Shown: positions 4,224 through 21,850, numbered from the stretch's first letter. The stretch: 64,000 nt of DNA from Candidatus Culexarchaeum nevadense (GCA_025060975.1 JANZKA010000001.1:28607-92606), one strand, 5' to 3'. Notes: generated by a model not told the origin, from the letters alone. Program-made: numbers and translations.

Positions 4224-4781
4224 ATGCTTGAATTCATAAATGAAGCATCAAAAATACTATCAAACGCAGAGATCATTAAAGCAACTGTGAAAAAAGCCTC
4301 CACCCCCATAGAGGTTGGAGGAGAGAAAATAAATCTAGACACAGAAGGTGTAGAAATACTAGTACCAAAATGGGCATCAGATAAACTAGTGAAAAACGGA
4401 TTAATAGAATTAAAATATGTTGAAGAATTGGGGATAAAAGAACTCAGGAAAGCCCTCTGGAAAGAATCAAGGGAAACCAATTTAACGAAAATAGATCCTC
4501 AATTCTACATGAAAGCAAGAGCCACCATTAAAAGGATAATGGAAGATATCAAAAGAAACCCAACACCAGAAAAAATCCAAGAAGAAAGAAAGTATAGGGA
4601 TACATTCATGGATATAGTGAATTGCAGAATGCAAAAAGTACTGCAATTAGCAATAACCGAATCAATACCACAAACGATAAGTGAAAATATGACTATAGAG
4701 GAAAAGATATTACTGAAAGAAGTAAAGAAGATGTTGACGATGTGGAAGGATCAAGTAACAAAAATAGGTGATGAAACATGA
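4224..4781 (+). CDS. gins23: Putative GINS subunit Gins23
   Basis: Small (185 aa) helical protein immediately upstream of mcm and translationally coupled to it (ATGA overlap). Gins23-mcm synteny is conserved in Sulfolobales. The sequence itself was not recognised by a motif. Confidence 0.45.
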   Translation: MLEFINEASKILSNAEIIKATVKKASTPIEVGGEKINLDTEGVEILVPKWASDKLVKNGLIELKYVEELGIKELRKALWKESRETNLTKIDPQFYMKARATIKRIMEDIKRNPTPEKIQEERKYRDTFMDIVNCRMQKVLQLAITESIPQTISENMTIEEKILLKEVKKMLTMWKDQVTKIGDET

Positions 4782-6835
4782 GTAGTCTAGAATTATTAGA
4801 AGCTGACATAAGAGAGAGATTCGCCGATTTCCTAAAATCATTCAAAAACAGTGCTGGAGAATATTACTACAAAAACATGTTAAGCCAAATGGTTGTAACT
4901 GGACAAAAACACCTAGTAATAAATTTTGAAGACCTACTGGAGTACGACCCGCAACTCGCAGAACAATTAATAGAAAAACCAACCAAAGTTATTGAAGCAG
5001 CCTCAGCAGCCATAAGAGATGTAATGATGAGTAGCATAAACATAACCTATGCAAGGAAGGTAAAAAGGTTTATAGCAAGGTTCAAAAAACTACCAGAAGT
5101 AATCCCTATAAGGAAAATCAGATCAGAACACATTGGAAAACTAATAATGATAGAAGGCATACTCACAAGAGTATCATCAATAAAACAACAGATAGTGAAA
5201 GCAGCATATAGATGTGAGAGATGCTCAGAAATAACCTATGTAGAAGCGGTCAGTTTAAATGAAAAGATAAGCCCACCGGAAAAATGCCAACATTGTGGAG
5301 GTAGAGTGTTCAAGTTAATCCCAGAAGAATCTGAATTCATAGATTGGCAAAGACTTACAATACAAGAAAGACCAGAAGAACTACCACCAGCCCAACTCCC
5401 AAGATCAATAGAAGCCATTGCAAGAGAAGATCTAGTGGATGTAGCTAAACCCGGTGATAGAATAATAGTCGTGGGAATATTGAAAGCAGTAAGGGAACAC
5501 ACTGGGATGGGAACAACATTTAGACCTGAAATAGAAGTAAACAATATAGAGTTATCAGAAAAGGGGCTGGAGGAAATAGAAATAACACCAGAAGATGAAG
5601 AGAAGATTAAGACTTTGGCAAAAGATCCAATGATACATGAGAAAATCATACAATCAATAGCACCATCAATATATGGTTATAGAGAAGTGAAGGAAGGAAT
5701 AGCATACCTACTATTTGGAGGAGTGCAAAAAACCTTACCAGATGGTGTAAGAATAAGAGGAGACATAAACATACTACTAGTCGGAGATCCTGGAACTGCA
5801 AAAAGCCAACTACTACAATACGTTGCCAGAATAGCCCCAAGAGGGATATATACTTCTGGAAAAGGGTCCACAGCCGCCGGATTAACAGCGGCAGTAGTAA
5901 AGGATAGAAGCACTGGTGATTGGTACCTTGAAGCAGGAGCACTCGTACTAGCAGATGGGGGAATCGCATGTGTAGATGAAATAGATAAAATGAGGAATGA
6001 AGATAGAGTAGCTATGCATGAAGTGATGGAACAACAAACAGTGAGCATAGCAAAAGCAGGTATAGTTGCAACATTAAATGCAAGAACATCAATATTAGCC
6101 TCAGCAAACCCAACACTTGGAAGATTCGTGGAACAAAAATCAATAGTTGAAAACGTTAATCTTCCAATCACAATACTTTCAAGATTTGACCTAATATTCC
6201 CATTGAAAGATGAGCCAGATGAAGAAAGAGATACGAAAATGAGTGACCACATACTTAGATTACATCAAACAAGGGGGTACGTTTCACCACCACCAATAGA
6301 ACCTGAACTCCTAAGGAAGTATATAGCATACATGAGGAAAAACGTTAAACCAAGATTATCTGATGAAGCTATGGAAAAAATAAAAGAGTATTATGTTGAA
6401 ATGAGGAGGCATGGGAAGAGTGGAGGGAGCATCCCAATAACCCCAAGACAACTGGAAGCATTAGTGAGAATGACAGAAGCAAGAGCAAAAATGGCCTTAA
6501 GAGATGTAGCCACAAAAGATGATGCAGAAGCAGCAATAAGACTAATGAACTACGTATTAGAGAAAACAGCATACGACATTGAAACCGAGAAAATCGATAT
6601 AGATGTATTATTAACCGGGAAAACAAGGTCGCAAAGAGAGAAAATGAACATCATAATGGATTACATAAGAAGTAAGGTTAAGGAGATAGGTGGACCAATA
6701 AAAAGGGAATTCGCCGCAGAAGAAATAGAGAAGATACATGGAATAGAGAAAAACACGGTTCTCGAGATCATAGAGAAGTTGTTAAAGGAAGGAATACTAT
6801 TCGAAGCTAGACCAGGATATGTGATGCCAACATAA
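4778..6835 (+). CDS. mcm: Minichromosome maintenance helicase MCM
   Basis: Zn finger C-x2-C...C-x2-C (CERC...CQHCGG). Walker A ILLVGDPGTAKSQ, Walker B DEIDKM, arginine finger SRFDL. 685 aa. Confidence 0.95.
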   Translation: MSSLELLEADIRERFADFLKSFKNSAGEYYYKNMLSQMVVTGQKHLVINFEDLLEYDPQLAEQLIEKPTKVIEAASAAIRDVMMSSINITYARKVKRFIARFKKLPEVIPIRKIRSEHIGKLIMIEGILTRVSSIKQQIVKAAYRCERCSEITYVEAVSLNEKISPPEKCQHCGGRVFKLIPEESEFIDWQRLTIQERPEELPPAQLPRSIEAIAREDLVDVAKPGDRIIVVGILKAVREHTGMGTTFRPEIEVNNIELSEKGLEEIEITPEDEEKIKTLAKDPMIHEKIIQSIAPSIYGYREVKEGIAYLLFGGVQKTLPDGVRIRGDINILLVGDPGTAKSQLLQYVARIAPRGIYTSGKGSTAAGLTAAVVKDRSTGDWYLEAGALVLADGGIACVDEIDKMRNEDRVAMHEVMEQQTVSIAKAGIVATLNARTSILASANPTLGRFVEQKSIVENVNLPITILSRFDLIFPLKDEPDEERDTKMSDHILRLHQTRGYVSPPPIEPELLRKYIAYMRKNVKPRLSDEAMEKIKEYYVEMRRHGKSGGSIPITPRQLEALVRMTEARAKMALRDVATKDDAEAAIRLMNYVLEKTAYDIETEKIDIDVLLTGKTRSQREKMNIIMDYIRSKVKEIGGPIKREFAAEEIEKIHGIEKNTVLEIIEKLLKEGILFEARPGYVMPT

Positions 6836-6841
6836 TGGGGG

Positions 6842-8998
6842 ATGAAGAAGATTAAGATAAGAGAGCTATCAATACCTAAAATAATAAAGGATATATTGGA
6901 AAACAATGGGATAGATGAACTTTACCCACCACAAGAGCAAGCTGTGAGGAATGGGTTACTTGAGGGAAGAAACATAGTAATAGCTATACCTACAGCTGCA
7001 GGGAAGACACTTGCAGCAGAACTAGCAATAACAAAAAGATTACTTGAAGAAGGAGGAAAAGCAATATATTTAACACCATTAAAAGCTCTTGCCTCGGAAA
7101 AGTACGAGGAATTTAAAAAATATGAATATGCTGGATTAAAAGTTGCCATAAGCACTGGAGACTACGACAATCCAGAACCACAACTCAAAAACTACAATAT
7201 AATAGTCATGACAAACGAAAAAGCAGACAGCATTCTAAGAAATAAACCTCAATGGATGAGTGAAGTCAAAGTGGTAGTAGCAGACGAAATACACCTAATA
7301 AATGATAATGACAGAGGACCAACCCTAGAAGTAGTCTTAGCAAAACTCTTATCAACAAATTCACAATTGCAAGTTATAGGTTTAAGTGCAACAATAATGA
7401 ATGCAGAAGAGATAGCTGAATGGTTAAATGCTAGACTCGTAAAAAGTCATTGGAGACCAGTACCATTAAGAAAAGGAATCTACGTGAATGGAAGAATAAT
7501 ATACGATGATGAAAACATAGTAGAGGTTACAAAAGAGAAAATAGATCCATGCCAAGCATTAACGAGACAAACCCTAGAAGATGGAGGCCAAGTATTAATC
7601 TTCACAAACACAAGAAACGATTCAAGAGAAACAGCCTTCAAACTAATACCACTAACATCAAAATACTTAAAAACAGACGACAAAAAGGAACTCTTAAACG
7701 TAGCCAACGAAATACTATCATCAGAAGAAAGCACAAGAATAAGTGAAGAATTAGCCACATGCATTAAAAATGGAATCGCATTTCACCATGCAGGATTATC
7801 AGCAACCCATAGAAATATAGTTGAAAAGGCATTTAAGGAATCCAAAATAAAGGTTATATGTGCAACCCCCACCTTAGCCGCAGGAGTAAATCTCCCAGCA
7901 AGAAGAGTGATAGTAAAGAGTTATTATAGATATGATAGTTCAACTGGATATCAAATGATACCAACATTCGAATACCATCAAATGGCTGGGAGAGCTGGAA
8001 GACCAAAATATGATGAATATGGAGACGCAATACTAATAGCCAAAAACCTCCAAGAACAAGAGTTCTTAATGGAAAACTATGTAAAGGCACCACCAGAAAA
8101 GATATGGTCTAGACTAGCATCAGAATCAGCATTAAGATCACATACACTTGCAATAATAACCACAGAATTTGCAAAGAATGAAGAGGAAGTCATGGAATTT
8201 ATAAGACGAACGTTCTATTACAAACAATATGGTGAAGAAAGACAAATAAGAAATGTACTGAGAAGAATAATGAAGTTCCTAGTGGAAAATGAGATGATTA
8301 AAGTTATTGATGAAAAAGTATACCCAACGAAGCTTGGAATAAGAGTATCACAACTATATATAGATCCACTATCAGCCATACGAATCATAAATGGACTAAA
8401 GGGAAAGAATAGTGCAAGTGAACTCGCATATATACACTTAATATGTATGACCCCAGACATGCAGAGACTACACCTTACTAGGAAAGATAGAAAGATATTA
8501 ATGCCGAAATTATTAGAACTTGAAGGAAAACTACTCGTAAATGTAAAAGAATTCACAGACGAATTCGAACAGCTAACAATGCTACAAGCACTTAAAACTG
8601 CCATGATGCTGAATGAATGGATAAATGAGGAAAAGGAAGATGTAATCATAGAAAAATATGATGTAGGACCTGGAGACATATACTCGATAGCACTTACAGC
8701 ACAATGGCTAATGTACTCAGCCACAGAAATAAGCAAATTAATGGGATTCATAAATCACTTACAAAAACTAACTGAGCTAACTAGCAGATTAGAATATGGA
8801 TGTAAACCAGAACTATTGGAACTAATAAGTTTAAAGGGTATAGGAAGAGTTAGAGCTAGACTACTTTATAGAGCAGGGTATAAAACCATAGAAGATCTAA
8901 AAAAGGCGCGTATAGAAGACTTGAGGAAAATACCATTATTCGGAGAAGAAACCATAAGGAAAATAAAGGAACAACTGGAAGAGGAAAGGCTACATTGA
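6842..8998 (+). CDS. hel308: Ski2-like DNA helicase Hel308/Hjm
   Basis: Motif I AIPTAAGKTLAAELA, DEIH box (ADEIH), motif VI HQMAGRAGR. About 720 aa with a C-terminal HhH-like tail. Starts 6 nt after the mcm stop. Confidence 0.85.
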   Translation: MKKIKIRELSIPKIIKDILENNGIDELYPPQEQAVRNGLLEGRNIVIAIPTAAGKTLAAELAITKRLLEEGGKAIYLTPLKALASEKYEEFKKYEYAGLKVAISTGDYDNPEPQLKNYNIIVMTNEKADSILRNKPQWMSEVKVVVADEIHLINDNDRGPTLEVVLAKLLSTNSQLQVIGLSATIMNAEEIAEWLNARLVKSHWRPVPLRKGIYVNGRIIYDDENIVEVTKEKIDPCQALTRQTLEDGGQVLIFTNTRNDSRETAFKLIPLTSKYLKTDDKKELLNVANEILSSEESTRISEELATCIKNGIAFHHAGLSATHRNIVEKAFKESKIKVICATPTLAAGVNLPARRVIVKSYYRYDSSTGYQMIPTFEYHQMAGRAGRPKYDEYGDAILIAKNLQEQEFLMENYVKAPPEKIWSRLASESALRSHTLAIITTEFAKNEEEVMEFIRRTFYYKQYGEERQIRNVLRRIMKFLVENEMIKVIDEKVYPTKLGIRVSQLYIDPLSAIRIINGLKGKNSASELAYIHLICMTPDMQRLHLTRKDRKILMPKLLELEGKLLVNVKEFTDEFEQLTMLQALKTAMMLNEWINEEKEDVIIEKYDVGPGDIYSIALTAQWLMYSATEISKLMGFINHLQKLTELTSRLEYGCKPELLELISLKGIGRVRARLLYRAGYKTIEDLKKARIEDLRKIPLFGEETIRKIKEQLEEERLH

Positions 8999-9008
8999 AA
9001 ACAAATAT

Positions 9009-9467
9009 TCAAAATAATTGCAAACAAACAATAATCTTTCCATCAACATTTGAAATATAAACAAATAGGAATTCACGTGACAAATTAACGTTAGAATTTA
9101 CATAACACACATCAATCAAGTATGGAAGACTCAACTTAAACTCACCTTGATCACAACATAATATCAAAGAATTCTGAAATATGGAAAGTCTATATCCAAT
9201 AAATCTAGTTGGAACAGATAATTTAATGCAAATACTGGAATTCAAACCTAAAATTCTGCAAATTTCAACTCCGTAAACTATGGACTCCTTAATACTATAC
9301 ATGAAAGAATGATAGACTCTATCATCATTAAGAATATTGAAATAAAAACCACTCATGGACATTAAAAGTAACAATATAGAAAGGATTAAGCCAAAATTGA
9401 GTATAGAGTTGGAAATGACGTTTCTCATATTTATCCACCAATCACATTGACCGATATTATAATACAA
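9009..9467 (-). CDS. Small membrane/pilin-like protein (last gene of the filament operon)
   Basis: N-terminal hydrophobic helix (ISNSILNFGLILSILLLLMS), beta-rich remainder. A likely internal start at MRNVIS would remove the overlap with the upstream gene. Confidence 0.3.
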   Translation of the reverse strand: MYYNIGQCDWWINMRNVISNSILNFGLILSILLLLMSMSGFYFNILNDDRVYHSFMYSIKESIVYGVEICRILGLNSSICIKLSVPTRFIGYRLSIFQNSLILCCDQGEFKLSLPYLIDVCYVNSNVNLSREFLFVYISNVDGKIIVCLQLF

Positions 9468-10105
9468 TTAAGTATCAATGGATTGACTCTACTTGAATTA
9501 AAAGACCAAATAAATGAGCATGTTGGACTATACAATTGCATATATGAGATTTTGGGGTTAGTAGGGCTATAGAACCTCTTTACAATATTAATGTATGGAA
9601 AGAAAGAATATTTCCCACATGATATCTTCAATGAACTATTAATATTGAACAATACAGCCCCAATCAATACTGAGTTACCATTAAAAACTATTCTCGGATG
9701 AATACTAAGGATCAACATACTCCCATTTGCTATTATCGAATAAGAGAAGTAAGTCCTATTACCTTCTTCAATTATTACATTCCCGTATGGATATAAGGAG
9801 CTGCGATAAACATACCTCAAGTTAATGGAGAAAGAAGACAACAGAGTTTCGTTATCAAAATTTATAATCTGGAAGCCGTTAATGTAAAACTCCAATACAC
9901 CATACTTTAAAGAAAAGGTGTGTACCACCATTTTACCAGATTCAATACCATCAACAAGCTTATAGAAAAATGATTTTACATCATTAATTTCAGCGAGCAT
10001 TAACACGTAGGTATTGTAGGAAGTATAAAACTGTAAGCAAACCGAACCAACTAATAGTATTAGCCCAACCAGAATAACTGATGAAGGTATCTCCGTAGAT
10101 GTCAT
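9431..10105 (-). CDS. Pilin-like/membrane-anchored protein (no canonical class III motif)
   Basis: N-terminal hydrophobic segment SSVILVGLILLVGSV. 224 aa. Start is 3 nt after the stop of the preceding gene. N-x-S/T sequons. Confidence 0.3.
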   Translation of the reverse strand: MTSTEIPSSVILVGLILLVGSVCLQFYTSYNTYVLMLAEINDVKSFFYKLVDGIESGKMVVHTFSLKYGVLEFYINGFQIINFDNETLLSSFSINLRYVYRSSLYPYGNVIIEEGNRTYFSYSIIANGSMLILSIHPRIVFNGNSVLIGAVLFNINSSLKISCGKYSFFPYINIVKRFYSPTNPKISYMQLYSPTCSFIWSFNSSRVNPLILNCIIISVNVIGG

Positions 10106-10776
10106 ATGGGCATCACATCCACAGAAATAACCTCAAAAACCAATATAACAGGACCACTTGATGTAATAATCGTTGAATAATGATCATTACTAGAAATTAG
10201 TGATATTTTAAGCTGACCAGCACACTCAAACGTGTAAATAGACTTAAATGAATCACTAACTCTCAAAACAAAGTTTCCACTGATGATACCAGAACTTTTC
10301 AAAACCATTAATCTCAAATAGATTCTGGAACCTAAATTATACACTGAAAGTGCTGGTATTAGATGTATATGATCACCATGCCCATATATTGAAAAACAAG
10401 TACCATTAAGTTGAATGGGTTGATCATAGTATATATTCGGAGAAGAAGCATAAACCTGTATGCTTAAAATTGACGATTTAAAATTCCCTAAGCATATATC
10501 GTTAACGATGATTGTTATATTGCAACAATCATCCAATTTAATAATGTAATGTGGATTGAATATCATAATTGAATCATCGATGAAATATAGTTTATCAGCC
10601 TCTAACCTCACATATCTCAAGAAGTCCACTGCATTATCAGACCTTAAACCACATTCCAAATTCCTCAAGTACATCATTCCATATTGAAGGCAAATGAAAG
10701 ATAGTGAGATAAAAACCATGAACATAATCACATTAGATAAAATATTGGAAATACCTCTAGAATTTAAATTGCCCAA
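10102..10776 (-). CDS. Class III signal peptide (prepilin-like) protein
   Basis: N-terminus MGNLNSRG|ISNILSNVIMFMVFISL: a short charged leader, then RG, then a hydrophobic helix, as in archaeal PibD substrates. 224 aa. Confidence 0.45.
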   Translation of the reverse strand: MGNLNSRGISNILSNVIMFMVFISLSFICLQYGMMYLRNLECGLRSDNAVDFLRYVRLEADKLYFIDDSIMIFNPHYIIKLDDCCNITIIVNDICLGNFKSSILSIQVYASSPNIYYDQPIQLNGTCFSIYGHGDHIHLIPALSVYNLGSRIYLRLMVLKSSGIISGNFVLRVSDSFKSIYTFECAGQLKISLISSNDHYSTIITSSGPVILVFEVISVDVMPI

Positions 10777-11422
10777 TGCATTTCACCCCTCTCCAATCAA
10801 TTACACTAAATATAAAAGTATGCACATTCAACGGGATTATAAAACGAATAACGTAATGCCCATTCATTAAACTCTTAGAATCTGGATAAAAAGTGAAAGT
10901 ACTCCCATTATAGATGTATGAAACCATGAATGTTGGCGGTTTAAGTAGAGCTTCAGAATCACCGAAAACCTCAACTACCATCTCAACATCATTAAATGTT
11001 GGAACATACGAATTTGAAGTTGTTATATTAACTATTTTAAAGCCTAAACAACAATTATAACTAAACGTATACCTACACCTATATTTGAAATCATATACTT
11101 GTAACGTGACTGAGGCTCCAACATACCCATCTTTTAAAATAACAGTATATGATGACAATTCAACTATTAATGGGTAAACATTCATAATGTCATGTAAATT
11201 TAGATTTAAACGATCAGTGAATTCTCCACCATTAATGCGATGCACCAATGCATCGCATATCAACCTTTTAAATATCAAATTTAAAGCTTGAATATAGCTA
11301 GATGGAACATCAATGTCTATTCTGTAATATGGGGTTAGATAAATTAATTGATAAATTAAGGAGATGTATAATACTGCAAACAGTATTAATATTTGTCCTC
11401 TACACCCAAACTTGCAGAACAA
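10757..11422 (-). CDS. Class III signal peptide (prepilin-like) protein
   Basis: N-terminus MFCKFGCRG|QILILFAVLYISLIYQLIYL. 221 aa. Confidence 0.4.
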   Translation of the reverse strand: MFCKFGCRGQILILFAVLYISLIYQLIYLTPYYRIDIDVPSSYIQALNLIFKRLICDALVHRINGGEFTDRLNLNLHDIMNVYPLIVELSSYTVILKDGYVGASVTLQVYDFKYRCRYTFSYNCCLGFKIVNITTSNSYVPTFNDVEMVVEVFGDSEALLKPPTFMVSYIYNGSTFTFYPDSKSLMNGHYVIRFIIPLNVHTFIFSVIDWRGVKCIGQFKF

Positions 11423-11804
11423 TTATTCTAGTCACCCCCCTCAACTTCAAGACAAATGGTGCACTAACCATGGAATTAAATATCTTGAAATTGGAAATGT
11501 ACGAGAATAATAAGTTATGATTCTCATCATATACTAGTAAGTTGAAGCTCAATTCTTGTGGTATGAGAAGTTTAATGTAATTCACTAATAAATCCCAATC
11601 CCCATTATAGGCGATTACACTTAAATCCCCATTAGAATCAAGTGTGTATAAAATGTTAAATGCTATGGAATGAAGATGGGAATTATCTACGGTATAATCA
11701 TATACTATCATGGGGATTGTTATGGTGGAATACGCTATTATCATCATTGCGATGAGAACTTCAATTATTCTTGAAAAACCACGATAAGCCATATCCACCA
11801 CCAA
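11400..11804 (-). CDS. Type IV pilin-like protein (class III signal peptide)
   Basis: N-terminus MVVDMAYRG|FSRIIEVLIAMMIIAYSTITIPMIVY. 134 aa, a typical pilin size. Confidence 0.5.
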   Translation of the reverse strand: MVVDMAYRGFSRIIEVLIAMMIIAYSTITIPMIVYDYTVDNSHLHSIAFNILYTLDSNGDLSVIAYNGDWDLLVNYIKLLIPQELSFNLLVYDENHNLLFSYISNFKIFNSMVSAPFVLKLRGVTRIIVLQVWV

Positions 11805-11813
11805 TCTACTAAA

Positions 11814-13121
11814 TCATAAATTGTTAAGTCCCGGTAAACCAGAATTACACATGCAAGTACCACTATTCTTAACCCTAATTTTACATAGCAATGAATGGTA
11901 TGCATCAACTTTGAGAAAACTATAAGTAGAATCACCTTCATTTAGAAAGCCTATTGAAACATTCAATTCTGGAATAAAGGCAACGTAAAATACTCCATTA
12001 AATGTGTAGATCATAACGTAAGGAGGACTTACATTTGGCATCGTATTCACATTAATACTCTTATCAAACCAGAGCAACCAAACTTTATCAACATTAAAAC
12101 ATGGTATATATGAGCTATGATGAGACGATGACACAATATTGTTTAACTTCAAAATGAAAGGATGAGTCCATCCACCAAGATAGATATACACATTCCCACT
12201 TGAACTTAGTTTCAGAAAGAATCTCACATTACTTCCATGAAATTCCTTCAGTAGGGGTATGTGGAAGGTAAAACTCTTAACACAACTGGAATTGATTGTG
12301 AAGAAGAAATCGGCTAAAACCATAGAATCACTGCAATTAGATCCACAAATTCCAAAAACCATATGGAGACTTCCAAAACCACTGGCAAAAAATGAGAGCT
12401 CTAAGGAGTCATTGGAAATGCTGATTGAATTTTTAAAAACTCTACTGTAAAACGAGGTTCCATTATCATTAAGTAATATGACTGAAGAGGCTCCAAAAAT
12501 ACTATCAACAATATAGTATCCACCACCAAGATTGGACAAATAGAATTGCGTTGGTCGTGCAATCATGTAACTCATTTGGAAATCTCCATATAAACCGATA
12601 CCAAACAATTGCCCATGCCTAACAAATACAACCACCAATTGAGGCTTGTACTTCAATGAAATACTTCCAAAACCATTATCCAAGTTTATATAGTAATAAT
12701 CGGTTAAGGTTCCATTACTAAATATATAAACGAAGGCTTCTCTACCACAAGATTTCATATTAACGATATCGAGGGATCTTATAATCACAGACTCACCAGT
12801 AAAGTACACTTTAACATCTAGGGATGGTGATATTTGGATGGAGAATACGTGATCTTCCATGTTAATGGTCTTCTTCAAATACTCATAGTCTAAGTAATAG
12901 CCGAAAACTTGTGAGTAAATGGGGGATAAAGCTTGAAGAGTGAATGGATCAATCCTCCCCTCAGGAGCTATTGAGTATAGTAGGCGATTGACTATTACAT
13001 CATTAGAGTATGTTGTAAAATGAAAGTATCTTTGTGCAGTGGAACTCAATATGCTTGCACTAGATGATAATAGTAAGAAGATCATGAATCCAGCGAAAAC
13101 ATATTCTACAACTTCTTCCAT
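11814..13121 (-). CDS. Membrane-anchored secreted protein of the filament locus
   Basis: N-terminal hydrophobic segment FAGFMIFLLLSSSASILS. 435 aa, beta-rich, multiple N-x-S/T sequons. No recognisable catalytic motif. Confidence 0.35.
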   Translation of the reverse strand: MEEVVEYVFAGFMIFLLLSSSASILSSTAQRYFHFTTYSNDVIVNRLLYSIAPEGRIDPFTLQALSPIYSQVFGYYLDYEYLKKTINMEDHVFSIQISPSLDVKVYFTGESVIIRSLDIVNMKSCGREAFVYIFSNGTLTDYYYINLDNGFGSISLKYKPQLVVVFVRHGQLFGIGLYGDFQMSYMIARPTQFYLSNLGGGYYIVDSIFGASSVILLNDNGTSFYSRVFKNSISISNDSLELSFFASGFGSLHMVFGICGSNCSDSMVLADFFFTINSSCVKSFTFHIPLLKEFHGSNVRFFLKLSSSGNVYIYLGGWTHPFILKLNNIVSSSHHSSYIPCFNVDKVWLLWFDKSINVNTMPNVSPPYVMIYTFNGVFYVAFIPELNVSIGFLNEGDSTYSFLKVDAYHSLLCKIRVKNSGTCMCNSGLPGLNNL

Positions 13122-16100
13122 GAATAATCACCATCAATCCACAATCCCTCAAAAACTTCATATCCAAATGCGTAAACAGTAAGCACTATTTTATGAATTC
13201 TCCTTGGAAGAGAGAATGTATAGAATTTTATGGATCCATGAGTTAATGTTATGGTGATGGATGATGAGTAGAAGAGTTCATCAAATTCGTCGTAAAACAT
13301 CACATTCAGTGTACAATTGAAATCCATGAAGCTCGATTTTGAAGTTAAAGTGAAATTAGCAAATCTCCCCTCAACATTAACATATAACAGCACACCAATG
13401 TTTTCATTCCAGCATAAATCGCATAGTTCATCTAGTCTGGAAACCCACGTATTACTAATGTCTCTGCAAAGTAACTTGATTGTAAAGTTTTTGTAAAAGG
13501 GTATTCTGAAAGTCATAGAAGCAACTCCATCTTCATCAGTTTTATAATTAAGTTTGGTGATAACAGTATCATTACAATAAACCATTAACAGCAGCTCTAG
13601 ATGTGCTGGATCACCATTGGAATAATAGAATTTAAAGTTGATATTGAAAGATAAATCTTTTACCAAAAATCTTAGGATATCACATTGTATACGTTTAAAT
13701 GGAATAACAACATATGATAAACTTGAATTCGTAGATCTGATAGTGAATGGGGAGTTAACATAGTATACGAAGAACTTAAGTGAATCATTAAAGTTAATGG
13801 GGGGAGCAATAAACTTTGCGTTTCCAAAATCATCAATTGGAGAACTCCTAAAATATCCATATGTGGAGTTCAAGACAAGTTGAAGAGCCCCCCCTCTAAA
13901 CCTTAAACTCTCATTGTTGAGACTCCAAGTTAAATGGAATAATATTTCATTGCAACTATAATCATTATTTACAATATAATACACTTTTAATCCGTCAACA
14001 TAAAATCTATTTCTACCTACAATACGTCCAGAATCATCTGAAAGTAGGATTTCATAGGATCCTAAGGGGCAATTTATACCATTTAAATAAACTATGAGTT
14101 TACATAACCCATCTTCATCAGTTGATACTGGTATGAGTGAAACGTTAAAATCGCCGAAAACGGCATTTGGAAGAATCAACGTGAGATTCCTCAGAGGCTG
14201 ATATTTAATTATAATCCCCATGGCTTCATATGGTAGAAATCTATACTCTGAATACCAATAGCCATACATCCAGTTGACATAATATAATTCGATGGAAGCA
14301 AGTCGCCTAATTTCAATGGAAAATGTGCACGAATCATTATGTGAACTGGAGAATGCATGTAATTTAAAGTTGAATATTCCAGTTAAATTTGATAATGGAA
14401 TTACACGTAACTCAACGATTTCCACAGGATTTGAATCTGATATGTAAACTGGGTTTCTAGAAAAATTATATCTGAAGAAATCCGAGTAGCTTGCATTACA
14501 TAAAACTTCGAGAGAAACATAACCGCTGAACCCATTAACGGAAGTTAAACTAACATAAAACAGTGCATCTTCACCTTCAAGAATAGATATAAATGTTGGA
14601 TATATGGAAACGTTGAAGTATCGCCCTTGCTTAACTTCCAATTTAAATGGATTACTATAAACTATCAACCCATTATGATCAACACCCTTTACTATCAGAT
14701 CATACACTCCCTCAATAGAAGAAGGAGAAGCATAAATTTCGAGGACTACACTTTTTTCATAGGAATCGATGAACAATGGATTAATGGAAAAATTATATAA
14801 ACAGTTTGGAGGATTACCCTCAACACTTAATGTGATTACACCACTATAACCATTAATTGGAGTTAAAGTTACATTGTAGAGTACACGAGACCCTTTAAAG
14901 ACGCTATTAAAAGTTGGGTTAACGGTAATTGAATATGAGGGAGCCACATAACTTTCAACGTTCAGTAATATCTTTCTACTCTGACCATCGGAACCTACGG
15001 CCAAGATTTCAATGAAGCAATCCCCAATATCATAAGATGTGAAGTCTATGTGAAACTGGAATGGAGGAATACCTCTAGTCTCACCCACCACGTTGTAACT
15101 AAGCCAACTTGGGACAGATCCTATTGTAACCTGCACAGGGAGTTCATAGCCATATAGATCGCCAACATATACGTCAATCCCCCTTGCAGAACCCAATGGT
15201 ATTCGAATACAATTATAGGAGGAACTTAAGGAGAAGGATGGTATTGTTAAATTAAAATCCTTTGAAGAAGGAAGATAGCTACTATCCCCTTCAAAAACAA
15301 TTCTTAAAATTCTCTTACCAAATTGTATATCACTTGGGATAACATATAAAAACGTAAAGGAGCCATCAGAATCGGTATGATTCGATGATATATACATGGA
15401 ATCCATATACAAATCGATTTTCGCATTCGAAATACCGTTACCGCGACTATTTATCAAGCGTCCACTTAAATATATTAGGTCTCCAATATACCCTTTAGAT
15501 GCACTTATAGAGCCAACAATGTATGAGTTCTCAAAATAGCCTATAGACAATGTTATTCGTAAACCATAACTCCCACTATAGAAGTCTGCAAAGGAATATG
15601 CGTAATCCTCTAAAGCTCCAGTAGCTATACTTCTAACAACCATTATAACTGAGAAGTCAAGCCTATCACCACTAAAAACATTTAAATCCAGATCTTGATA
15701 AACAGAAACATATTGATCACTAAAAACATATTGATCTTCACCTGAATAATAGAGGGTAAGAGTTTTTGAAGCCAAAGTAACTCTATAATTCATGAAGTCC
15801 ACATAAACCTCAATGCTAGCTTCAGCTGAAAATGTATTAGGGAGACATATGGATTTAACGTATAGTTTACCCATAAGTGTATATTTAATCGATAACTTCT
15901 TGATAACACCACTAAATGGTGAAATAAGGTAACCTTTAAAGGTGAGGGTTAAATCAGCTTCATTCAATAAGGATCCTATATTCTTCGTGGCAGAACATAT
16001 AGCTTTAAGTAAACCTCGATTCTTATCATAACTATAAGTGAAACTTCCAGTACCACAAGTATAGTAGAAAGGTTGAAATTCATTGAATGGTGGAGCAAGG

Positions 16101-16234
16101 GGGTAATATAGGATGCAATTAGAGTTTGGGAGCAAAAGTAACAATAATAGTGAAATCATTAATGGTAGGAGTAGCATCCTTCTTCTTACCATAACCTTGC
16201 ACCACCATAAATTCCAAGGATGCAAATGTAGCAA
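13106..16234 (-). CDS. Large secreted multi-domain surface protein (carboxypeptidase-regulatory-like / Ig-like repeats), putative adhesin
   Basis: 1042 aa. Signal-like segment RRRMLLLPLMISLLLLLLLP; the probable true start is the internal Met near 16192. Motifs GRLINSRGNGISNAKIDLY...TDSDGSFTF and KTDEDGVASMTF resemble prealbumin-like CarboxypepD_reg folds. Internally repeated ~80-aa units (NGYSGVITLSVEGNPP...FSINP / NGFSGYVSLEVL...FSRNP). About 20 N-x-S/T sequons. Confidence 0.5.
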   Translation of the reverse strand: MLHLHPWNLWWCKVMVRRRMLLLPLMISLLLLLLLPNSNCILYYPLAPPFNEFQPFYYTCGTGSFTYSYDKNRGLLKAICSATKNIGSLLNEADLTLTFKGYLISPFSGVIKKLSIKYTLMGKLYVKSICLPNTFSAEASIEVYVDFMNYRVTLASKTLTLYYSGEDQYVFSDQYVSVYQDLDLNVFSGDRLDFSVIMVVRSIATGALEDYAYSFADFYSGSYGLRITLSIGYFENSYIVGSISASKGYIGDLIYLSGRLINSRGNGISNAKIDLYMDSMYISSNHTDSDGSFTFLYVIPSDIQFGKRILRIVFEGDSSYLPSSKDFNLTIPSFSLSSSYNCIRIPLGSARGIDVYVGDLYGYELPVQVTIGSVPSWLSYNVVGETRGIPPFQFHIDFTSYDIGDCFIEILAVGSDGQSRKILLNVESYVAPSYSITVNPTFNSVFKGSRVLYNVTLTPINGYSGVITLSVEGNPPNCLYNFSINPLFIDSYEKSVVLEIYASPSSIEGVYDLIVKGVDHNGLIVYSNPFKLEVKQGRYFNVSIYPTFISILEGEDALFYVSLTSVNGFSGYVSLEVLCNASYSDFFRYNFSRNPVYISDSNPVEIVELRVIPLSNLTGIFNFKLHAFSSSHNDSCTFSIEIRRLASIELYYVNWMYGYWYSEYRFLPYEAMGIIIKYQPLRNLTLILPNAVFGDFNVSLIPVSTDEDGLCKLIVYLNGINCPLGSYEILLSDDSGRIVGRNRFYVDGLKVYYIVNNDYSCNEILFHLTWSLNNESLRFRGGALQLVLNSTYGYFRSSPIDDFGNAKFIAPPINFNDSLKFFVYYVNSPFTIRSTNSSLSYVVIPFKRIQCDILRFLVKDLSFNINFKFYYSNGDPAHLELLLMVYCNDTVITKLNYKTDEDGVASMTFRIPFYKNFTIKLLCRDISNTWVSRLDELCDLCWNENIGVLLYVNVEGRFANFTLTSKSSFMDFNCTLNVMFYDEFDELFYSSSITITLTHGSIKFYTFSLPRRIHKIVLTVYAFGYEVFEGLWIDGDYSWKKL

Positions 16235-17874
16235 GATACCAATGCATGCTTAAAACCTGCAAAGATAGTTCCACCAGAAATTTTCCCTACAAGTATGCCT
16301 ATGAAGAATGAAGTTAAAATTATCATAGAATTTATGGTTGAATTTAACTCAATAATCACACTTTTATCAACATTGAAGAAGATAATCTGACTCGGAATAG
16401 AATATCCAAATTCAAAAAAGCTAAGGAACCCAATTAACTGGTAAGAGACAAATATGAGCATGAGTGAAGAGAAGTATCCCACCAAAATATAGAGTTTCAA
16501 TTCATTTTCAACTCTACGCTTAAATTCATTGTACTCCCAACAGAACTTTGAAAGATGTGAGAAAATTTCAGATCTTCCACCACCAGTAGATACAGCTTCC
16601 CCAAAAAGCCAAAATATCCTCTTGGCAAACCATGAATTAACCCTAGAAATAATATCATTGAATATATCTGATATAGACTTCATGGATGACGTCAAGGAAA
16701 GGTTTATACTACGAATAATATCATCTAAAGCTTTACCATAAGATCTGCTAGAGGCAAGTATTAAAGCATTCTCGACACTTAAACCAACCTTAATATAATC
16801 GGATATATCCCTAATGAATTTTGAAAGACCAGAATCTATGACTCTACATTTAATAACATTGTATTCGTGAAAAATACTTAAAGGAGCCAATAAAACCGTA
16901 GAAGAAATTGTGAAAAGAAGTGGAAAGCTCACACCTAAATTCAAGAGTATAAGTAACGTTATGAAGAAAGAAGGGATCGAGAAGAGCAATACCCGCTTAT
17001 AATTACTAAACCTAAATGGAAATTTCAATTGACTGTAATCGATTATAATGAAGATGGAAAATGCTATTAGTGGAGTGAAAATAAAAGCATAAAGTTTTAG
17101 GAATAACAATGCATTTAATGGATTCATAATCATAAATATGCCAATTAAGCCGAGTGGGAGAAATAGGAATAGTGTTACTATGAGATCGCCAAATACGTTC
17201 ACATCACTAGCGAAATTCTTAAGCTTATTTGAAAACCGCTCACCCAATTTAAGCGTGTAATCCATTAAAGAAGAAGATGGATAACCACCACTCTCAACAG
17301 ACCTAATATATGAATCAAGATAATCCCTGAAATCTTTACATGGATGATTGTAAGCTAAGAACTTAATTGATTGCATGGGATCTTTACTAAAAAACTTATA
17401 ATCAGTAAAGAAGACTTCACTTTCAAACTTAAACCATGGAAAAACGTTTTGTGAAGATAATCTTTCAAACCCTCTAAATAGAGGCACATGAGATAAACTC
17501 AACATACTAAAATAAGTTGATATGAAAGGAAGTTCGGATTCAACACCACTAACACGTAAGGATATTCTAACCCTAGGATAAAAATGAAAAACTAAAAATA
17601 CGAATAATGCACATAAAGGTGGCAATACAAGGAAGAGAAATGAAGAAAACAAAATCAGAAGAAGAATAGATGCAATTGTGGATGCTGGTAAAACTATGAG
17701 TAAAAGGTAGAATAGGAAAATCGAACAGTACCCTTGAGGACTTATCTTTAAACCAGAACGAACTATAATTTCACTTAAATTAAGCTTATGAGAAATAGTA
17801 TTTGCAAAATTACCAAAAAGTCTATATGCTATAGAAATTGGAAAAACTTGAACACTCTTACCTTTCCAAAGCAA
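16186..17874 (-). CDS. FlaJ/TadC/PilC-type polytopic membrane platform protein of a type IV filament system
   Basis: 562 aa. Two hydrophobic blocks, each followed by a cytoplasmic helical domain (a duplicated T2SS-F-like organisation). Immediately downstream of, and overlapping, the secretion ATPase gene. Confidence 0.7.
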   Translation of the reverse strand: MLWKGKSVQVFPISIAYRLFGNFANTISHKLNLSEIIVRSGLKISPQGYCSIFLFYLLLIVLPASTIASILLLILFSSFLFLVLPPLCALFVFLVFHFYPRVRISLRVSGVESELPFISTYFSMLSLSHVPLFRGFERLSSQNVFPWFKFESEVFFTDYKFFSKDPMQSIKFLAYNHPCKDFRDYLDSYIRSVESGGYPSSSLMDYTLKLGERFSNKLKNFASDVNVFGDLIVTLFLFLPLGLIGIFMIMNPLNALLFLKLYAFIFTPLIAFSIFIIIDYSQLKFPFRFSNYKRVLLFSIPSFFITLLILLNLGVSFPLLFTISSTVLLAPLSIFHEYNVIKCRVIDSGLSKFIRDISDYIKVGLSVENALILASSRSYGKALDDIIRSINLSLTSSMKSISDIFNDIISRVNSWFAKRIFWLFGEAVSTGGGRSEIFSHLSKFCWEYNEFKRRVENELKLYILVGYFSSLMLIFVSYQLIGFLSFFEFGYSIPSQIIFFNVDKSVIIELNSTINSMIILTSFFIGILVGKISGGTIFAGFKHALVSCYICILGIYGGARLW

Positions 17875-19441
17875 TCCTAATCACCTCAGACCCCCTTGAA
17901 TAATAGAAAAGTTTAAGATGATCGATGAAATCATCATATTCACGTATACCATGAGCATGTAGATCTTCCAGAAACTGCAACCTAATTTTCAACTCATGTG
18001 AAATATCATTTATCGAAACCCCCTTCTCCTCAGCGATCTGTCTTAGAAGGAAACTTGAAGATAATAGTGAATCAACAGTGGACGGCGCAAAGATATCTCG
18101 GGATGGAACCCACTTGAAAACCTCAATATAATCGTCGGCTGATTTTATCTCATAAATACCAATAACCCTCCTCTTAACACTTCTTGCACCCTCAATCTTC
18201 TTCAATACGATGGCACAATTCATTAGTGGAATATATATTGGGGATACATTCATGGGCGGCGAAGATAAGCGCTTAATAGCGGAAATTATAGAATCAGCAT
18301 GCATCGTACACATACATCCATGCCCTGTAGCTGCAGCTTGAAATAACACATAAGCTTCTTCGCCACGAATTTCTCCAACCACAATATAGTCAGGTCTCTT
18401 ACGCATAGCTACCTTAACTAAATCGAATAGAGTAATCTCAAACTGCTTATCATCCATAAAGTATGCATGCCTAGCTACAAGTGGCTCCCAACCTTTAACT
18501 GGAATTTTAAGCTCAGGAACATCTTCAATGGAATCAACAGACCAATTTGGTTTAAACAATGCACTTAAAGCGGAAAGTAAAGTTGTCTTACCACTCGCAG
18601 TACCTCCAAGTACAAATATGTTCTTTCTATTTTCAATCAACAACCACAAATAGCAAGTCATGAGAGGACTTAAAGTTGAAAAATCATACGTTAAATGCAT
18701 AACGGTATAAGGTTTCTCTCTAAACTTCCTAATACAAATATTAGTGGATTTAGCACTAACTTCTCTCCCATAGCATATTGAAACTCTATGCTTATCAGGT
18801 AATATGGCATCAACTATTGGAAATGCTATTGAGACATGTTTACCACACATATGTGCAAGCTTAGAAGCCAGCGAATTTAATTCATATTCGTTTAAAACAA
18901 TGTTCGTTGTAAGCCAATCCAGATGCCCAAACCTCCTATGCCAAACCATAAATGGGATATTGGGACCTACACACTTAATATCCTCAATTTCCGAATCTTG
19001 AATTAACGGTTCAATATAACCATAACCCAAATCTCTAGCTATATAATATGCAACACGATTCAAACTCAATTCATAAAGATTTTTAAACCCATAATTCTCA
19101 GCCACCCTAAATATTTGCTCATGTATATAATTGAATAAATTAGTACCAGCCTCCAAAGCGGGAGGTATCTTTAATTCAAATCGCAATATCTTAGATAATT
19201 CCCTGTAAACTTTTAATTCCAGATCCATAAGCTCAGGTTCAAATACAATATATAATCCTTCACCATCATCATCTGCAATAACCACATTAACTTGATCATT
19301 ACAAACTTTATATGATGCAAGTATAGTTGCATTTATGGGAACTTTTGATCTAAAAATCTTAAAATCCATAGGATTCTCCAAATACGAAGACCCACGTTTG
19401 AAAAAACGTTTTAAGAACATTATTCGCGCATCCCCTCTCAT
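17858..19441 (-). CDS. Type II/IV secretion system ATPase (FlaI/VirB11/TadA family)
   Basis: Walker A VLGGTASGKTTLLSAL, Walker B/Asp box DYIVVGEIRGEEA, His box TGHGCMCTMHA. 527 aa with an N-terminal domain, as in FlaI. Confidence 0.85.
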   Translation of the reverse strand: MRGDARIMFLKRFFKRGSSYLENPMDFKIFRSKVPINATILASYKVCNDQVNVVIADDDGEGLYIVFEPELMDLELKVYRELSKILRFELKIPPALEAGTNLFNYIHEQIFRVAENYGFKNLYELSLNRVAYYIARDLGYGYIEPLIQDSEIEDIKCVGPNIPFMVWHRRFGHLDWLTTNIVLNEYELNSLASKLAHMCGKHVSIAFPIVDAILPDKHRVSICYGREVSAKSTNICIRKFREKPYTVMHLTYDFSTLSPLMTCYLWLLIENRKNIFVLGGTASGKTTLLSALSALFKPNWSVDSIEDVPELKIPVKGWEPLVARHAYFMDDKQFEITLFDLVKVAMRKRPDYIVVGEIRGEEAYVLFQAAATGHGCMCTMHADSIISAIKRLSSPPMNVSPIYIPLMNCAIVLKKIEGARSVKRRVIGIYEIKSADDYIEVFKWVPSRDIFAPSTVDSLLSSSFLLRQIAEEKGVSINDISHELKIRLQFLEDLHAHGIREYDDFIDHLKLFYYSRGSEVIRIALER

Positions 19442-19464
19442 CCAAAATTAGAGGGATAAACAAC

Positions 19465-19474
19465 ATATTTAAAA
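19465..19474 (-). promoter_or_regulatory. Putative BRE/TATA box for the filament-locus ATPase operon (leaderless transcript)
   Basis: The minus strand reads TTTTAAATAT, centred about 28 nt upstream of the ATG at 19441. Confidence 0.3.
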
Positions 19475-19552
19475 CCAAGATTTCATGCAACATAAACACT
19501 GGATTCTACAACAGCATTTTAATACCAAAAAATATAGCAAAAAGGTGAAAGT

Positions 19553-20554
19553 ATGTTCAAATCCAGTACAAAAGAATTATCAGAAAAGATCGATTGGATG
19601 ATGCAAATACTCAATGAGATAAATGTGAAAATAAATGATAACTCTAGCAGGATAATGAAACTTGAAGCAGAATTAAGAGGTATTCAATTAGATGAAATTG
19701 GTGAAAACATAAAAGCCATTAATGAAGGACTCTACAAAGTCAAAGAAGCAATGAATGAAGCTGGAAAAATGAGAGAGATAATATCTGCATTTAAAAACCT
19801 AAATGTGAAAGGAGAGTTTAAGGAGAATATAGATGAATTAAAGAAGAGCATTGAAGAAGTCATGCAGCAATTGCTACAAATAAAAAGCGAAGTATACTCA
19901 AACATAAAAGCATTAACAGACAAAATAAACAATATACAAACAATACATCAGGAAATCATGAAAAACATTATGAGTATAAAAGATTTAGAAGTAAACGCAT
20001 TAAAAAACATATCCACAATAACCATCATGCAAAAAGAAATAGGAGAAATGGAGGAAAATGTAAGGAAACTATTGGAGCACTACAAGGAAATTATAGATAA
20101 AACAGCATCAACAAAAATTGAATTAAACAAATTAATGAATGATATAGAAAGAAGAGATGAAGAAAGCAAAAGGAAATTGGAAGAAGTAACTATATACGAG
20201 GAAAAAATTAAGAAAAAAGAAGAAGAACTAATTGAAAGAGAGAAACTACTCACACAACTAATAAACGCATTAATTGAAAAAATAAAGGAATATGAAGAGA
20301 TAATGAAACTAACAAACTCAAGAATAACATACTTAAAAATTTTAGAAGAGAAAGGAAGAGAAATTGAAGGGAAAATTAAAGAATTAAAAGAGGAGAAAGA
20401 AAGATTGGAGAAAGAGGTCAATATTTTAATAAGAAGAAGAGATAACCTCGAAGAAGAGATATGCAAATTAAATGATATGAAAACTTGCATGGAGAAGAAT
20501 CTTAAAAGCATAATGGTGACAATGAAAGTTGAGCAATCCAGAACTAACATATAA
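19553..20554 (+). CDS. Coiled-coil protein (E/K-rich, no TM), divergent from the filament operon
   Basis: 333 aa, heptad-like E/K/L/I-rich sequence throughout. GGTGA Shine-Dalgarno-like motif 5 nt upstream of the ATG. Confidence 0.4.
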   Translation: MFKSSTKELSEKIDWMMQILNEINVKINDNSSRIMKLEAELRGIQLDEIGENIKAINEGLYKVKEAMNEAGKMREIISAFKNLNVKGEFKENIDELKKSIEEVMQQLLQIKSEVYSNIKALTDKINNIQTIHQEIMKNIMSIKDLEVNALKNISTITIMQKEIGEMEENVRKLLEHYKEIIDKTASTKIELNKLMNDIERRDEESKRKLEEVTIYEEKIKKKEEELIEREKLLTQLINALIEKIKEYEEIMKLTNSRITYLKILEEKGREIEGKIKELKEEKERLEKEVNILIRRRDNLEEEICKLNDMKTCMEKNLKSIMVTMKVEQSRTNI

Positions 20555-21254
20555 AATTATAAATCACTTGAAGGAAGAGTTATCAAGGGAAATTACGAGG
20601 GGAAGGTTAACATTCACTCCTAAAAGGATAAGCGTAAATATAGGTGAGAGAGGGAATATAAGGAAAATAAACGCTATTCTAAAGATGCTAGAAAGAGAGG
20701 GAGTAATAAAGTTCGATAAAAGAATGAAACGTTACTACATAGACGACGAAAATGCAAAGAAAATTGAAGATTACCTTATGAAAATTGAAGGAGCACTACT
20801 ATTAGAATACCATAAACCCTTAAGCAGCATAGAACCACCCATAAATGTATATAGAATAATTAAGGGGGAAAAGCAAAAGATAGCACAAGCAAAAAGGAAG
20901 AGTATAATGAAACCAATATACTATGTAAATTCCCCTGAGAAATACACGATAATATTCAGGACATATAAGATGCCAGGATTCACAATAAATAAAGGTGATG
21001 AAAAAATTTTCGAAGCATATAAACTAGGGTTCATGAAACCAATAAAAGCAATGTACAATGGAAAAGAAATGCTGATAAGAAGGAAATGGGGTAGAGAGAT
21101 CATAATAATAAGGGAAAATGAGAAAGAAATCGCTAAAATGAGGGGGTATGGAATTGAAAAAGCCATATTTACATATGAAGAAGCGTTAAGTGAAATTAGT
21201 ATACCAATATCAGTAGCATTATTTGCAATAAAACAATTTGATGTAATACTTTAA
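20529..21254 (+). CDS. Hypothetical protein with an N-terminal winged-helix-like segment
   Basis: 241 aa, basic. N-terminal RISVNIGERGNIRKINAILKMLEREGVIKF resembles a wHTH. Overlaps the upstream coiled-coil gene by 26 nt. Confidence 0.35.
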   Translation: MSNPELTYKIINHLKEELSREITRGRLTFTPKRISVNIGERGNIRKINAILKMLEREGVIKFDKRMKRYYIDDENAKKIEDYLMKIEGALLLEYHKPLSSIEPPINVYRIIKGEKQKIAQAKRKSIMKPIYYVNSPEKYTIIFRTYKMPGFTINKGDEKIFEAYKLGFMKPIKAMYNGKEMLIRRKWGREIIIIRENEKEIAKMRGYGIEKAIFTYEEALSEISIPISVALFAIKQFDVIL

Positions 21255-21334
21255 AATAAAAATATATGAAGATTAACTTAACATATGAGACTCCAATAAT
21301 TTATATTCACATAACCCATAAGATGAGGGGTTAA

Positions 21335-21850
21335 ATGAGTAATAGTAAAGGGATAAGTGCAATAATGGTCTCGATAATACTATTAGCAGTATCCATTGGA
21401 ATGGCAGTAGCCTACGCATCAACCATGATGGGATGGTTTGGAAGCGCTATGAACATAGTGAAAATAGATGCATCAGAATCTAAAATAATTCTAAACCCAT
21501 CCACAAATCAAACAAGGATACAAATAGTGCTAAGAAACATGGGAACTACAACAATAAAAGTGAGTAGCATCTCGATAGACACAGAAAAGGGGAAAGCAAT
21601 TATAAACTTTACAAAGAGTGATGTGAAAATATATATGCAAGATCAATCTCCATTTGATGGAGACGTATATGGATCTTCAAAGGATGTAACTATCTCTGAT
21701 AAGTACTTATTAATACCACAAGGTTGCACAGCAACTATATACTTTGAAATAATCTTACAAGAGCATGTATGGAAACTTGGAAACATATATAGGGCATTGG
21801 TATTCTATGATGGAGGAATGTTTGACTTTAAGATAAGCGTAGTGTATTAG
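21335..21850 (+). CDS. Archaeal type IV pilin-like protein (class III signal peptide)
   Basis: N-terminus MSNSKG|ISAIMVSIILLAVSIGMAVAYA, a canonical KG|IS PibD/FlaK-type site, followed by a beta-rich 140-aa domain with N-x-S/T sequons. GAGGGG 6 nt upstream of the ATG. Confidence 0.6.
   Translation: MSNSKGISAIMVSIILLAVSIGMAVAYASTMMGWFGSAMNIVKIDASESKIILNPSTNQTRIQIVLRNMGTTTIKVSSISIDTEKGKAIINFTKSDVKIYMQDQSPFDGDVYGSSKDVTISDKYLLIPQGCTATIYFEIILQEHVWKLGNIYRALVFYDGGMFDFKISVVY

Follow-up and report, generated by a model that had tools for sequence, protein, structure and literature searches.

What does a large exported protein do in the middle of a type IV pilus gene cluster if it is not itself a pilin? 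The question is raised by a stretch of 64,000 nucleotides (nt) from Candidatus (Ca.) Culexarchaeum nevadense (GCA_025060975.1 JANZKA010000001.1:28607-92606; hereafter the window), in which the gene for such a protein lies between the genes for an assembly ATPase and a TadC/FlaJ-type platform protein and a run of pilin-like genes. A preliminary description, made from the sequence of the window, had proposed a tip adhesin, a sheath or a matrix protein rather than a pilin. That the protein is not a pilin is borne out by its lack of a class III signal, and nothing we found specifically supports a sheath. Our own answer is tentative and held with slightly less than even confidence: the protein would be a non-pilin, filament-associated adhesin or effector of a lineage-specific type IV pilus-like machine.

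The gene itself is beyond doubt. On the minus strand, positions 13106..16234 form a single uninterrupted open reading frame (ORF), opposite which an ORF scan of the window finds no frame of 80 amino acids (aa) or more. Counted from the upstream TTG, as in the preliminary description, the product is 1042 aa long; counted from an in-frame ATG at 16192 it is 1028 aa long and reads MVRRRMLLLPLMISLLLLLLLP (MVRRRMLLL...). Ten full-length homologues of 1023-1031 aa, at 97% down to 30% identity, are colinear with it end to end, and all align from this ATG (nine begin with MV and one with LV). Because the homologue starts line up there, ATG 16192 is probably the true start, which upholds the ORF as first described and shortens its product to 1028 aa. 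The start codon (16192-16190) overlaps the TadC stop codon TAA (16188-16186) within ATGGTAA, a 7-nt overlap that confirms the contact with the platform gene's stop noted earlier, and the ATG of the downstream gene sits 16 nt before the large gene's stop (16-nt overlap). Overlapping start and stop codons are the arrangement expected for co-transcription and translational coupling.

Compared with an orthologue 83% identical at the protein level (L011), the ratio of nonsynonymous to synonymous substitution rates (dN/dS) is 0.12 for the large gene and lies between 0.07 and 0.26 in each of ten segments. The large gene is about as constrained as those for TadC (dN/dS 0.13) and the ATPase (0.10), and more so than the pilin-like genes (0.22-0.25); per-domain dN/dS reveals no diversifying selection in any domain. 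The preliminary description had allowed for a frame-fused artefact of two genes. This is ruled out by colinear homologues of matching length in independent assemblies (1023-1043 aa over all independent homologues) and by purifying selection along the whole gene, which is intact and real.

Linkage to the pilus genes is strict among the loci recovered. The named homologues all come from Ca. Methanomethylicia. An ATPase scan of species-representative genomes returned six loci, one of them in Ca. Culexmicrobium cathedralense (Culexarchaeales), and the large gene is present in all six. The five with enough sequence all hold a complete cluster of 12 genes (ATPase, TadC, the large protein, six pilin-like or N-terminally hydrophobic proteins, and a three-gene divergent unit), with the large gene directly after TadC. 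Loci reached through the large protein itself, or through TadC in metagenomes, place it in the same position wherever there is enough flank, and the placement holds among family members down to 30% identity. The preliminary description had suggested looking in other genomes for co-occurrence with the ATPase/platform pair, and it is found there in every locus with enough flank. Among the recovered loci there is neither a copy of the large gene outside the cluster nor a cluster without the large gene, and searches with the ATPase against genome contigs, with the TadC protein and with a TadC profile against metagenome contigs returned Methanomethylicia/Culexarchaeales loci alone. Five of the six ATPase-scan loci are labelled Methanomethylicia or Methanomethylicota and one Nitrososphaerota. 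A genome record labelled 'uncultured Nitrososphaerota archaeon' (L008, CAYWZQ010000001.1) carries the same full cluster with genes identical to those of locus L003; its public taxonomic label looks inconsistent.

The protein is a string of predicted beta-sandwiches. The full-length AlphaFold2 model has a mean predicted local distance difference test score (pLDDT) of 81 and a predicted template modelling score (pTM) of 0.38, and is all-beta except for the signal helix, in line with the beta-sandwich-like build first proposed. With this pLDDT and pTM the single domains are confident, and their mutual arrangement is not. Nine domains were parsed from the strand pattern of the model (Table 1). Internal repeats had been described with units of ~80 aa; they are present, with units of ~100-105 aa. 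Profile-profile comparison (hhalign) matches residues 418-522 (domain 4, D4) to residues 523-630 (D5) with 99.1% probability (E 5e-19), and identifies residues 318-417 (D3) as a weaker third copy (75% against D5). Self-BLAST of the protein detected no repeats, and the profile-profile comparison was needed to reveal them. The D3-D5 repeat type recurs many times in two unrelated large surface proteins (P0011 and P0012). Domain 6 opens with a block that is invariant in the homologue alignment, YYVNW..W..E..FLPYEA.G. A TDxDG turn occurs three times, in D2, D6 and D8, in the latter two in the form TDEDG; the D6 copy (STDEDGL) had been overlooked at first.

Family assignments of single domains are weak in the window protein and better in its relatives. 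The carboxypeptidase-regulatory-like segments of the preliminary description fall below threshold in the window protein (PF13620 scores 15.5 bits where 32.3 are required, with E 0.022, at residues 256-299 in the 1042-aa frame), where MG4 also matches weakly (E 0.046, residues 856-912 in the same frame). At E<=0.01, 7 of 11 family members do match CarboxypepD_reg (best E 1e-4), 6 of 11 match Big_3_5 (best E 5.6e-8) and 3 of 11 match MG4, and two NCBI homologues carry the name 'carboxypeptidase-like regulatory domain-containing protein'. In the model, a beta-sandwich of suitable size for CarboxypepD_reg occupies aa 232-317. Structural matches of single domains include invasin, intimin, Lap adhesin and macroglobulin domains and carbohydrate-binding modules. 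No meaningful match came from searching PDB sequences with a profile. The likeness ends at the domain level: whole-chain TM-scores to invasin/intimin, Lap-type adhesins and macroglobulin proteins are ~0.10-0.16 (Foldseek), with no global match. A thioester/alpha-2-macroglobulin protein was rejected on the same scores and on the lack of a CxEQ motif. Fibrillar adhesins differ as well, in that the large protein has no outer-membrane or cell-wall anchor.

The N-terminal domain (N-domain) stands apart. Modelled alone (pLDDT 90, pTM 0.83), it is predicted to form a beta-sandwich jelly-roll whose fold resembles carbohydrate-binding modules. Sequence identity to such modules and to elongated beta-sandwiches of the Bd1399 type is only 5-13%, and no hidden Markov model (HMM) of a carbohydrate-binding-module family matches any of the 11 family members in Pfam scans; Bd1399 itself has no known function. 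A search with the N-domain profile against 1.84 billion representative proteins, run with no word filter, returned six clusters, all of the same family, along with two spurious repetitive matches. Because this search finds its own family alone, the N-domain is, as far as sequence profiles reach, an invention of this lineage. Over short evolutionary distances no other part of the protein changes more slowly: compared with homologue P0002, the N-domain is 92% identical and the other domains 76-85%, and the dN of the N-domain is 0.038.

The distribution of N-glycosylation sequons (N-x-S/T) gives the chain a polarity. The window protein holds 19, close to the 'about 20' first reported and above the 10.3 +/- 2.8 of shuffled sequences, only 7 of 2000 of which reach 19; family members have 15-23. 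Summed per domain over 11 related sequences and set against the expectation from domain composition, which gives a pattern rather than a statistic, sequons number 1 in the N-domain (13.6 expected), 2 in D3 (5.3), 53 in D5 (18), 26 in D6 (9), 45 in D7 (17) and 24 in D8 (13). The contrast between rich domains 5-8 and a nearly bare N-domain is kept even at 31% identity, and suggests a glycan-coated middle and C-terminal stalk with a bare N-terminal end.

Tandem Ig-like domains and many sequons are also found in archaeal S-layer proteins, and there are weak domain-level structural matches to Sap and SbsC. The protein could on these grounds be a general S-layer or sheath protein that merely neighbours the pilus genes. 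We consider this very improbable, since the gene was never found outside the cluster among the recovered loci and its codons overlap both neighbours. The C-terminus also speaks against it. In PySLP-like S-layer proteins of Thermoproteota, which have been proposed for Culexarchaeales as well, tandem Ig-like domains are accompanied by a beta-hairpin close to the membrane, a transmembrane helix at the C-terminus and a basic tail whose last residue is Lys (10.64898/2026.08.21.746120). The large protein has the Ig-like domains but lacks the C-terminal helix and basic tail, and was rejected as a member of this group. Ca. Culexmicrobium cathedralense has a PySLP-like S-layer candidate of its own (10.64898/2026.08.21.746120), set apart by its C-terminal features from homologue P0009, which likewise has no C-terminal transmembrane helix or basic tail. 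An S-layer or solute-binding family found elsewhere without type IV pilus genes, the other outcome that the preliminary description had allowed for, did not appear among the recovered loci.

At its N-terminus the protein carries a predicted short Sec-type signal. Residues ~6-21, the signal-like hydrophobic stretch pointed out earlier, are the sole segment with a Kyte-Doolittle 19-residue mean above 1.6. Beyond them there is no hydrophobic segment, and we found no C-terminal sorting signal or anchor; the protein ends ...DGDYSWKKL. In most homologues the hydrophobic core (h-region) is 15-17 aa long and is followed by an invariant Pro; judged by eye, a stretch of this length is more in keeping with a cleavable Sec signal than with a membrane anchor. 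Pilin identity was rejected: the N-terminal alignment of the large protein and its homologues contains no class III motif ([KR]G/, the slash marking the cleavage position) and no G/A at -1, and the order is MVRRR, a 16-residue hydrophobic stretch, then Pro. Neighbouring genes show KG/ISA, RG/QIL and RG/ISN followed by hydrophobic helices of at least 25 aa. A lipoprotein was rejected as well, as NSNC is not a lipobox and its Cys is not conserved among the homologues.

An uncleaved N-terminus would lead to a different role, that of an envelope-spanning accessory. The hydrophobic segment would hold the N-domain at the membrane beside TadC, and the protein would serve as a collar, stator or guide of the filament to the S-layer, in a role like that of archaellum FlaF/FlaG. 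Its approximately nine domains would reach ~35-40 nm if extended (an estimate at ~4 nm per domain), across a wide pseudo-periplasm. The gene's position directly after TadC with overlapping codons fits this role, as does the short linker, variable among homologues, between the hydrophobic segment and the N-domain. An N-domain that is the most conserved and, by prediction, the least glycosylated part of the protein is what a machine-facing interface would look like, and S-layers of Culexarchaeales are predicted to be held far from the membrane (10.64898/2026.08.21.746120). The h-region speaks against this role: short and followed by a conserved, helix-breaking Pro, it looks more like that of a cleaved signal, and the N-terminal helices of the neighbouring pilins are far longer. 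FlaF and FlaG, moreover, are small single-domain proteins, and Pfam and NCBIfam scans found no similarity to them. On balance we think an envelope-spanning accessory unlikely, though it deserves more weight than the other alternatives to a filament-associated adhesin or effector.

The surrounding genes supply a machine to which that adhesin or effector would belong (Table 1). At least four genes of the locus carry canonical class III signals, and they accompany a T2SSE ATPase and a TadC/FlaJ platform, the composition of a type IV pilus-like system. Against the NCBIfam models for named systems both machine proteins score below cut-off (cut-offs in brackets): the platform at 149.5 (400) for UpsF, its best match, 66.9 (1300) for BasF and 36 (550) for FlaJ, and the ATPase at 325 bits (550) for FlaI and 291 bits (1000) for BasE. 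Because both fall under the cut-offs for Ups, bindosome and archaellum, the cluster belongs, by these models, to none of the named kinds of type IV pilus-like system. The six tightly packed genes downstream of the large gene have no Pfam or NCBIfam match. Three encode canonical class III signals (G/FSRIIE in a 134-aa protein; RG/QILI in a 221-aa protein, with RG/Q(I/V)LI across loci; RG/ISNI in a 224-aa protein) and three have atypical but conserved hydrophobic N-termini: the other two small proteins (224 aa and 152 aa) and a 435-aa protein that is possibly a large atypical minor pilin. In the divergent unit, a 171-aa protein that starts MSNSKG/ISAIMVSIILLAVSIG, a textbook class III archaeal pilin signal, is the best candidate for the major pilin.

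A machine rich in minor-pilin-like genes could also be a secretion device, in which a short pseudopilus pushes the 110-kDa glycoprotein through the S-layer, as happens with PulA in type II secretion or TcpF and the toxin-coregulated pilus. Once outside, the protein, free or attached to a matrix, would bind glycans. A Sec-type signal with no anchor at either end suits such a cargo, and so does a gene located inside the machine's operon, as that of TcpF is (PMC10191384 Table 1). A good major-pilin candidate is conserved beside the operon, however, which suggests a real filament, and neither Pfam scans nor structural matches show anything enzymatic or toxin-like in the protein. We know of no archaeal type 4 filament that secretes a folded protein. 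Secreted cargo is in our judgement improbable. A bolder proposal gathers parts of these alternatives and makes the protein the first 'non-pilin effector' of any type 4 filament in archaea, acting in a manner so far unseen there: six pilin-like proteins would drive the 110-kDa glycoprotein across the S-layer by pseudopilus-driven, type II secretion-like export, or an N-terminally anchored conduit of ~35-40 nm would couple the pilus platform to the S-layer canopy. We regard it as a long shot, no nearer than secreted cargo.

For the reading that we prefer, a filament-associated adhesin or effector, we conjecture the following course. The protein would be exported through Sec and its signal peptide cut, and it would be N-glycosylated mainly on domains 5-8. 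It may then be captured by the minor-pilin complex encoded immediately downstream, which would prime the assembly of a filament on the platform of ATPase and TadC. Polymerisation of the major pilin (the 171-aa protein) beneath this complex would carry the large protein outwards at the filament tip. There the glycosylated Ig-like domains would form a stalk, and the conserved, unglycosylated jelly-roll N-domain the working head, for which we favour a lectin-like module that recognises glycans on cells, S-layers or polymers.

Four points weigh against this course. Physical association with the filament, and location at its tip, are inferred. Cleavage of the signal peptide was judged by eye. A conserved N-domain free of sequons would fit a surface for protein-protein docking as well as it fits a ligand site. 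Finally, genes for HDAC and QRPTase on one side of the cluster, and for Hel308 and MCM on the other, are also syntenic across genomes; conserved gene order here therefore partly reflects common descent, not functional selection.

The proposed logic is that of a recognised class in bacterial type 4 filaments, the 'non-pilin tip-located effectors' (PMC10191384), and by analogy the protein would be placed as PilY1/PilC is on PilHIJK-type minor pilins (PMC10191384), yet it is unrelated to them. Like PilY1/PilC, it is a large, modular, Sec-exported non-pilin encoded among minor-pilin genes, and it is proposed to sit where they do, on the priming complex of minor pilins at the tip of the filament (PMC10191384). 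It differs in being a string of beta-sandwiches and in having an archaeal host without an outer membrane. Homology with PilY1/PilC was rejected: Pfam and NCBIfam scans of 11 members gave no beta-propeller, vWA or DUF2341 match, and the model contains no propeller.

What is known of archaeal type IV pili concerns mainly the major pilins, and to our knowledge no filament-associated protein other than a pilin has yet been characterised by experiment in archaea. Such proteins had already been predicted from genomes in 2016, when Makarova, Koonin and Albers described large signal-peptide proteins in type IV pilus loci of Thermoproteales and other archaea of the TACK group (Thaumarchaeota, Aigarchaeota, Crenarchaeota and Korarchaeota), each predicted to be 'an adhesin or a minor pilin' (PMC4858521). 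Clades 4B, 4E and 4G of that survey resemble the present cluster: in a TACK host, a big exported non-pilin is encoded together with an ATPase, TadC and several minor-pilin-like proteins whose genes evolve fast. The proteins differ in that no sequence relationship is seen, all searches having stayed inside Methanomethylicia. The Culexarchaeales lineage is absent from the 2016 census (PMC4858521), and the Culexarchaeia genome paper makes no mention of pili. New here are this protein family, its N-domain and the Culexarchaeales pilus cluster, none of which is described in the literature that we searched. Current concepts are unchanged by the finding. The family adds a clean, always-linked example in an uncultured, thermophilic hot-spring lineage, and a testable polarity between a conserved, predicted unglycosylated jelly-roll head and a predicted glycosylated Ig-like stalk. 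If the tip location is true, archaea would have independently reached the bacterial arrangement of minor pilins plus a large adhesin, and the protein would offer a way to learn what these organisms adhere to in the sediments of hot springs.

Table 1. Position of the large gene, its predicted domains and the accompanying pilus genes in the window.
Feature	Position	Strand	Evidence and remarks
Large exported multi-beta-sandwich protein gene	13106..16192	-	Stop 13106-13108; homologue alignment, dN/dS, AlphaFold2
Sec-type signal peptide, aa 1-26	16115..16192	-	RRR n-region, 16-residue h-region, invariant Pro22; cleavage predicted
N-domain, elongated jelly-roll beta-sandwich, aa 28-231	15500..16111	-	LAPP and GA(L/I)EDY...DF invariant
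Domain 2, prealbumin/CarboxypepD_reg/Big_3_5-like beta-sandwich, aa 232-317	15242..15499	-	Contains ...HTDSDGSFTF...
Domains 3-5, three tandem Ig-like repeats, aa 318-630	14303..15241	-	hhalign
Domains 6-9, four non-repeated beta-sandwiches, aa 631-1028	13109..14302	-	Secondary structure of the model
TadC/FlaJ-type platform protein	16186..17874	-	Pfam T2SSF, E 1.5e-12; stop overlaps the large gene's start
Assembly ATPase, T2SSE/FlaI/BasE type	17858..19441	-	Pfam T2SSE, E 6.6e-29
435-aa protein with conserved hydrophobic start EYVFAG/FM	11814..13121	-	BLASTP to L1_764; N-terminal alignment
Five small genes, presumed minor-pilin set	9009..11804	-	N-terminal alignments over 5-6 loci; orthologues in all loci
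Divergent unit: 333-aa coiled-coil protein, 241-aa protein, 171-aa pilin	19553..21850	+	Conserved beside the operon in all loci

The operon and the divergent unit are separated by 111 bp (19442-19552) with A/T-rich, TATA-like elements at a suitable distance from both starts. One, ATATTTAAAA at ~19466-19475, is ~25-35 nt away from the ATPase ATG. A second, ATTTTAATA at ~19517-19525, is ~30 nt away from the ATG at 19553, upstream of which GGTGA also occurs. By direct reading, the region is consistent with two back-to-back archaeal promoters. Some ORF starts in the cluster are likely placed too far upstream: the 152-aa protein (9009-9467) would begin at MRNV near 9428 and the 134-aa protein (11400-11804) at MAYRG near 11792. 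The ATPase ORF (17858-19441, minus strand) possibly starts at Met8, as its homologues align from residue 7-11.

Two proteins of the cluster vary between lineages or strains. The counterpart of the 435-aa protein is 741-764 aa long in Culexmicrobium-like genomes (L001 13102-15396; L003 13134-15359), where an extra C-terminal half holds Ig-like repeats similar to domains 3-5 at 22-26% identity; the large gene and the next gene therefore share repeat modules. The 171-aa pilin (21335-21850, plus strand) is only 80% identical to its counterpart in a near-identical strain (L012, 4019-4540), from which most other cluster genes differ little (92-97% identity, dS about 0.07-0.14). Its N-terminal helix is nearly unchanged and its globular part (aa 46-171) has a dS of 0.66 and a dN of 0.16, a pattern suggesting that strains have exchanged the exposed pilin domain by allelic replacement or recombination.

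The flanks differ in detail. In the window about 10 nt (8998-9009) separate the operon from the helicase gene; in the three more distant lineages, the last pilin-like gene is followed by genes for HSP20 and PAC2 (a proteasome assembly chaperone; L001 18206-19399) before the Hel308-type helicase gene is reached. The MCM gene beside the cluster contains an intein in a related metagenomic lineage (L002 21488-22938; Intein_splicing and LAGLIDADG, 1212 aa) and is intein-free in the window (4778-6835, 685 aa). Elsewhere in the window, tRNA-Gly(GCC) at 30557-30652 (minus strand) measures 93-96 nt, ~20 nt above standard, and probably contains an intron, a common feature of tRNA genes in TACK archaea; tRNA-Pro(GGG) at 24539-24617 is of normal length.

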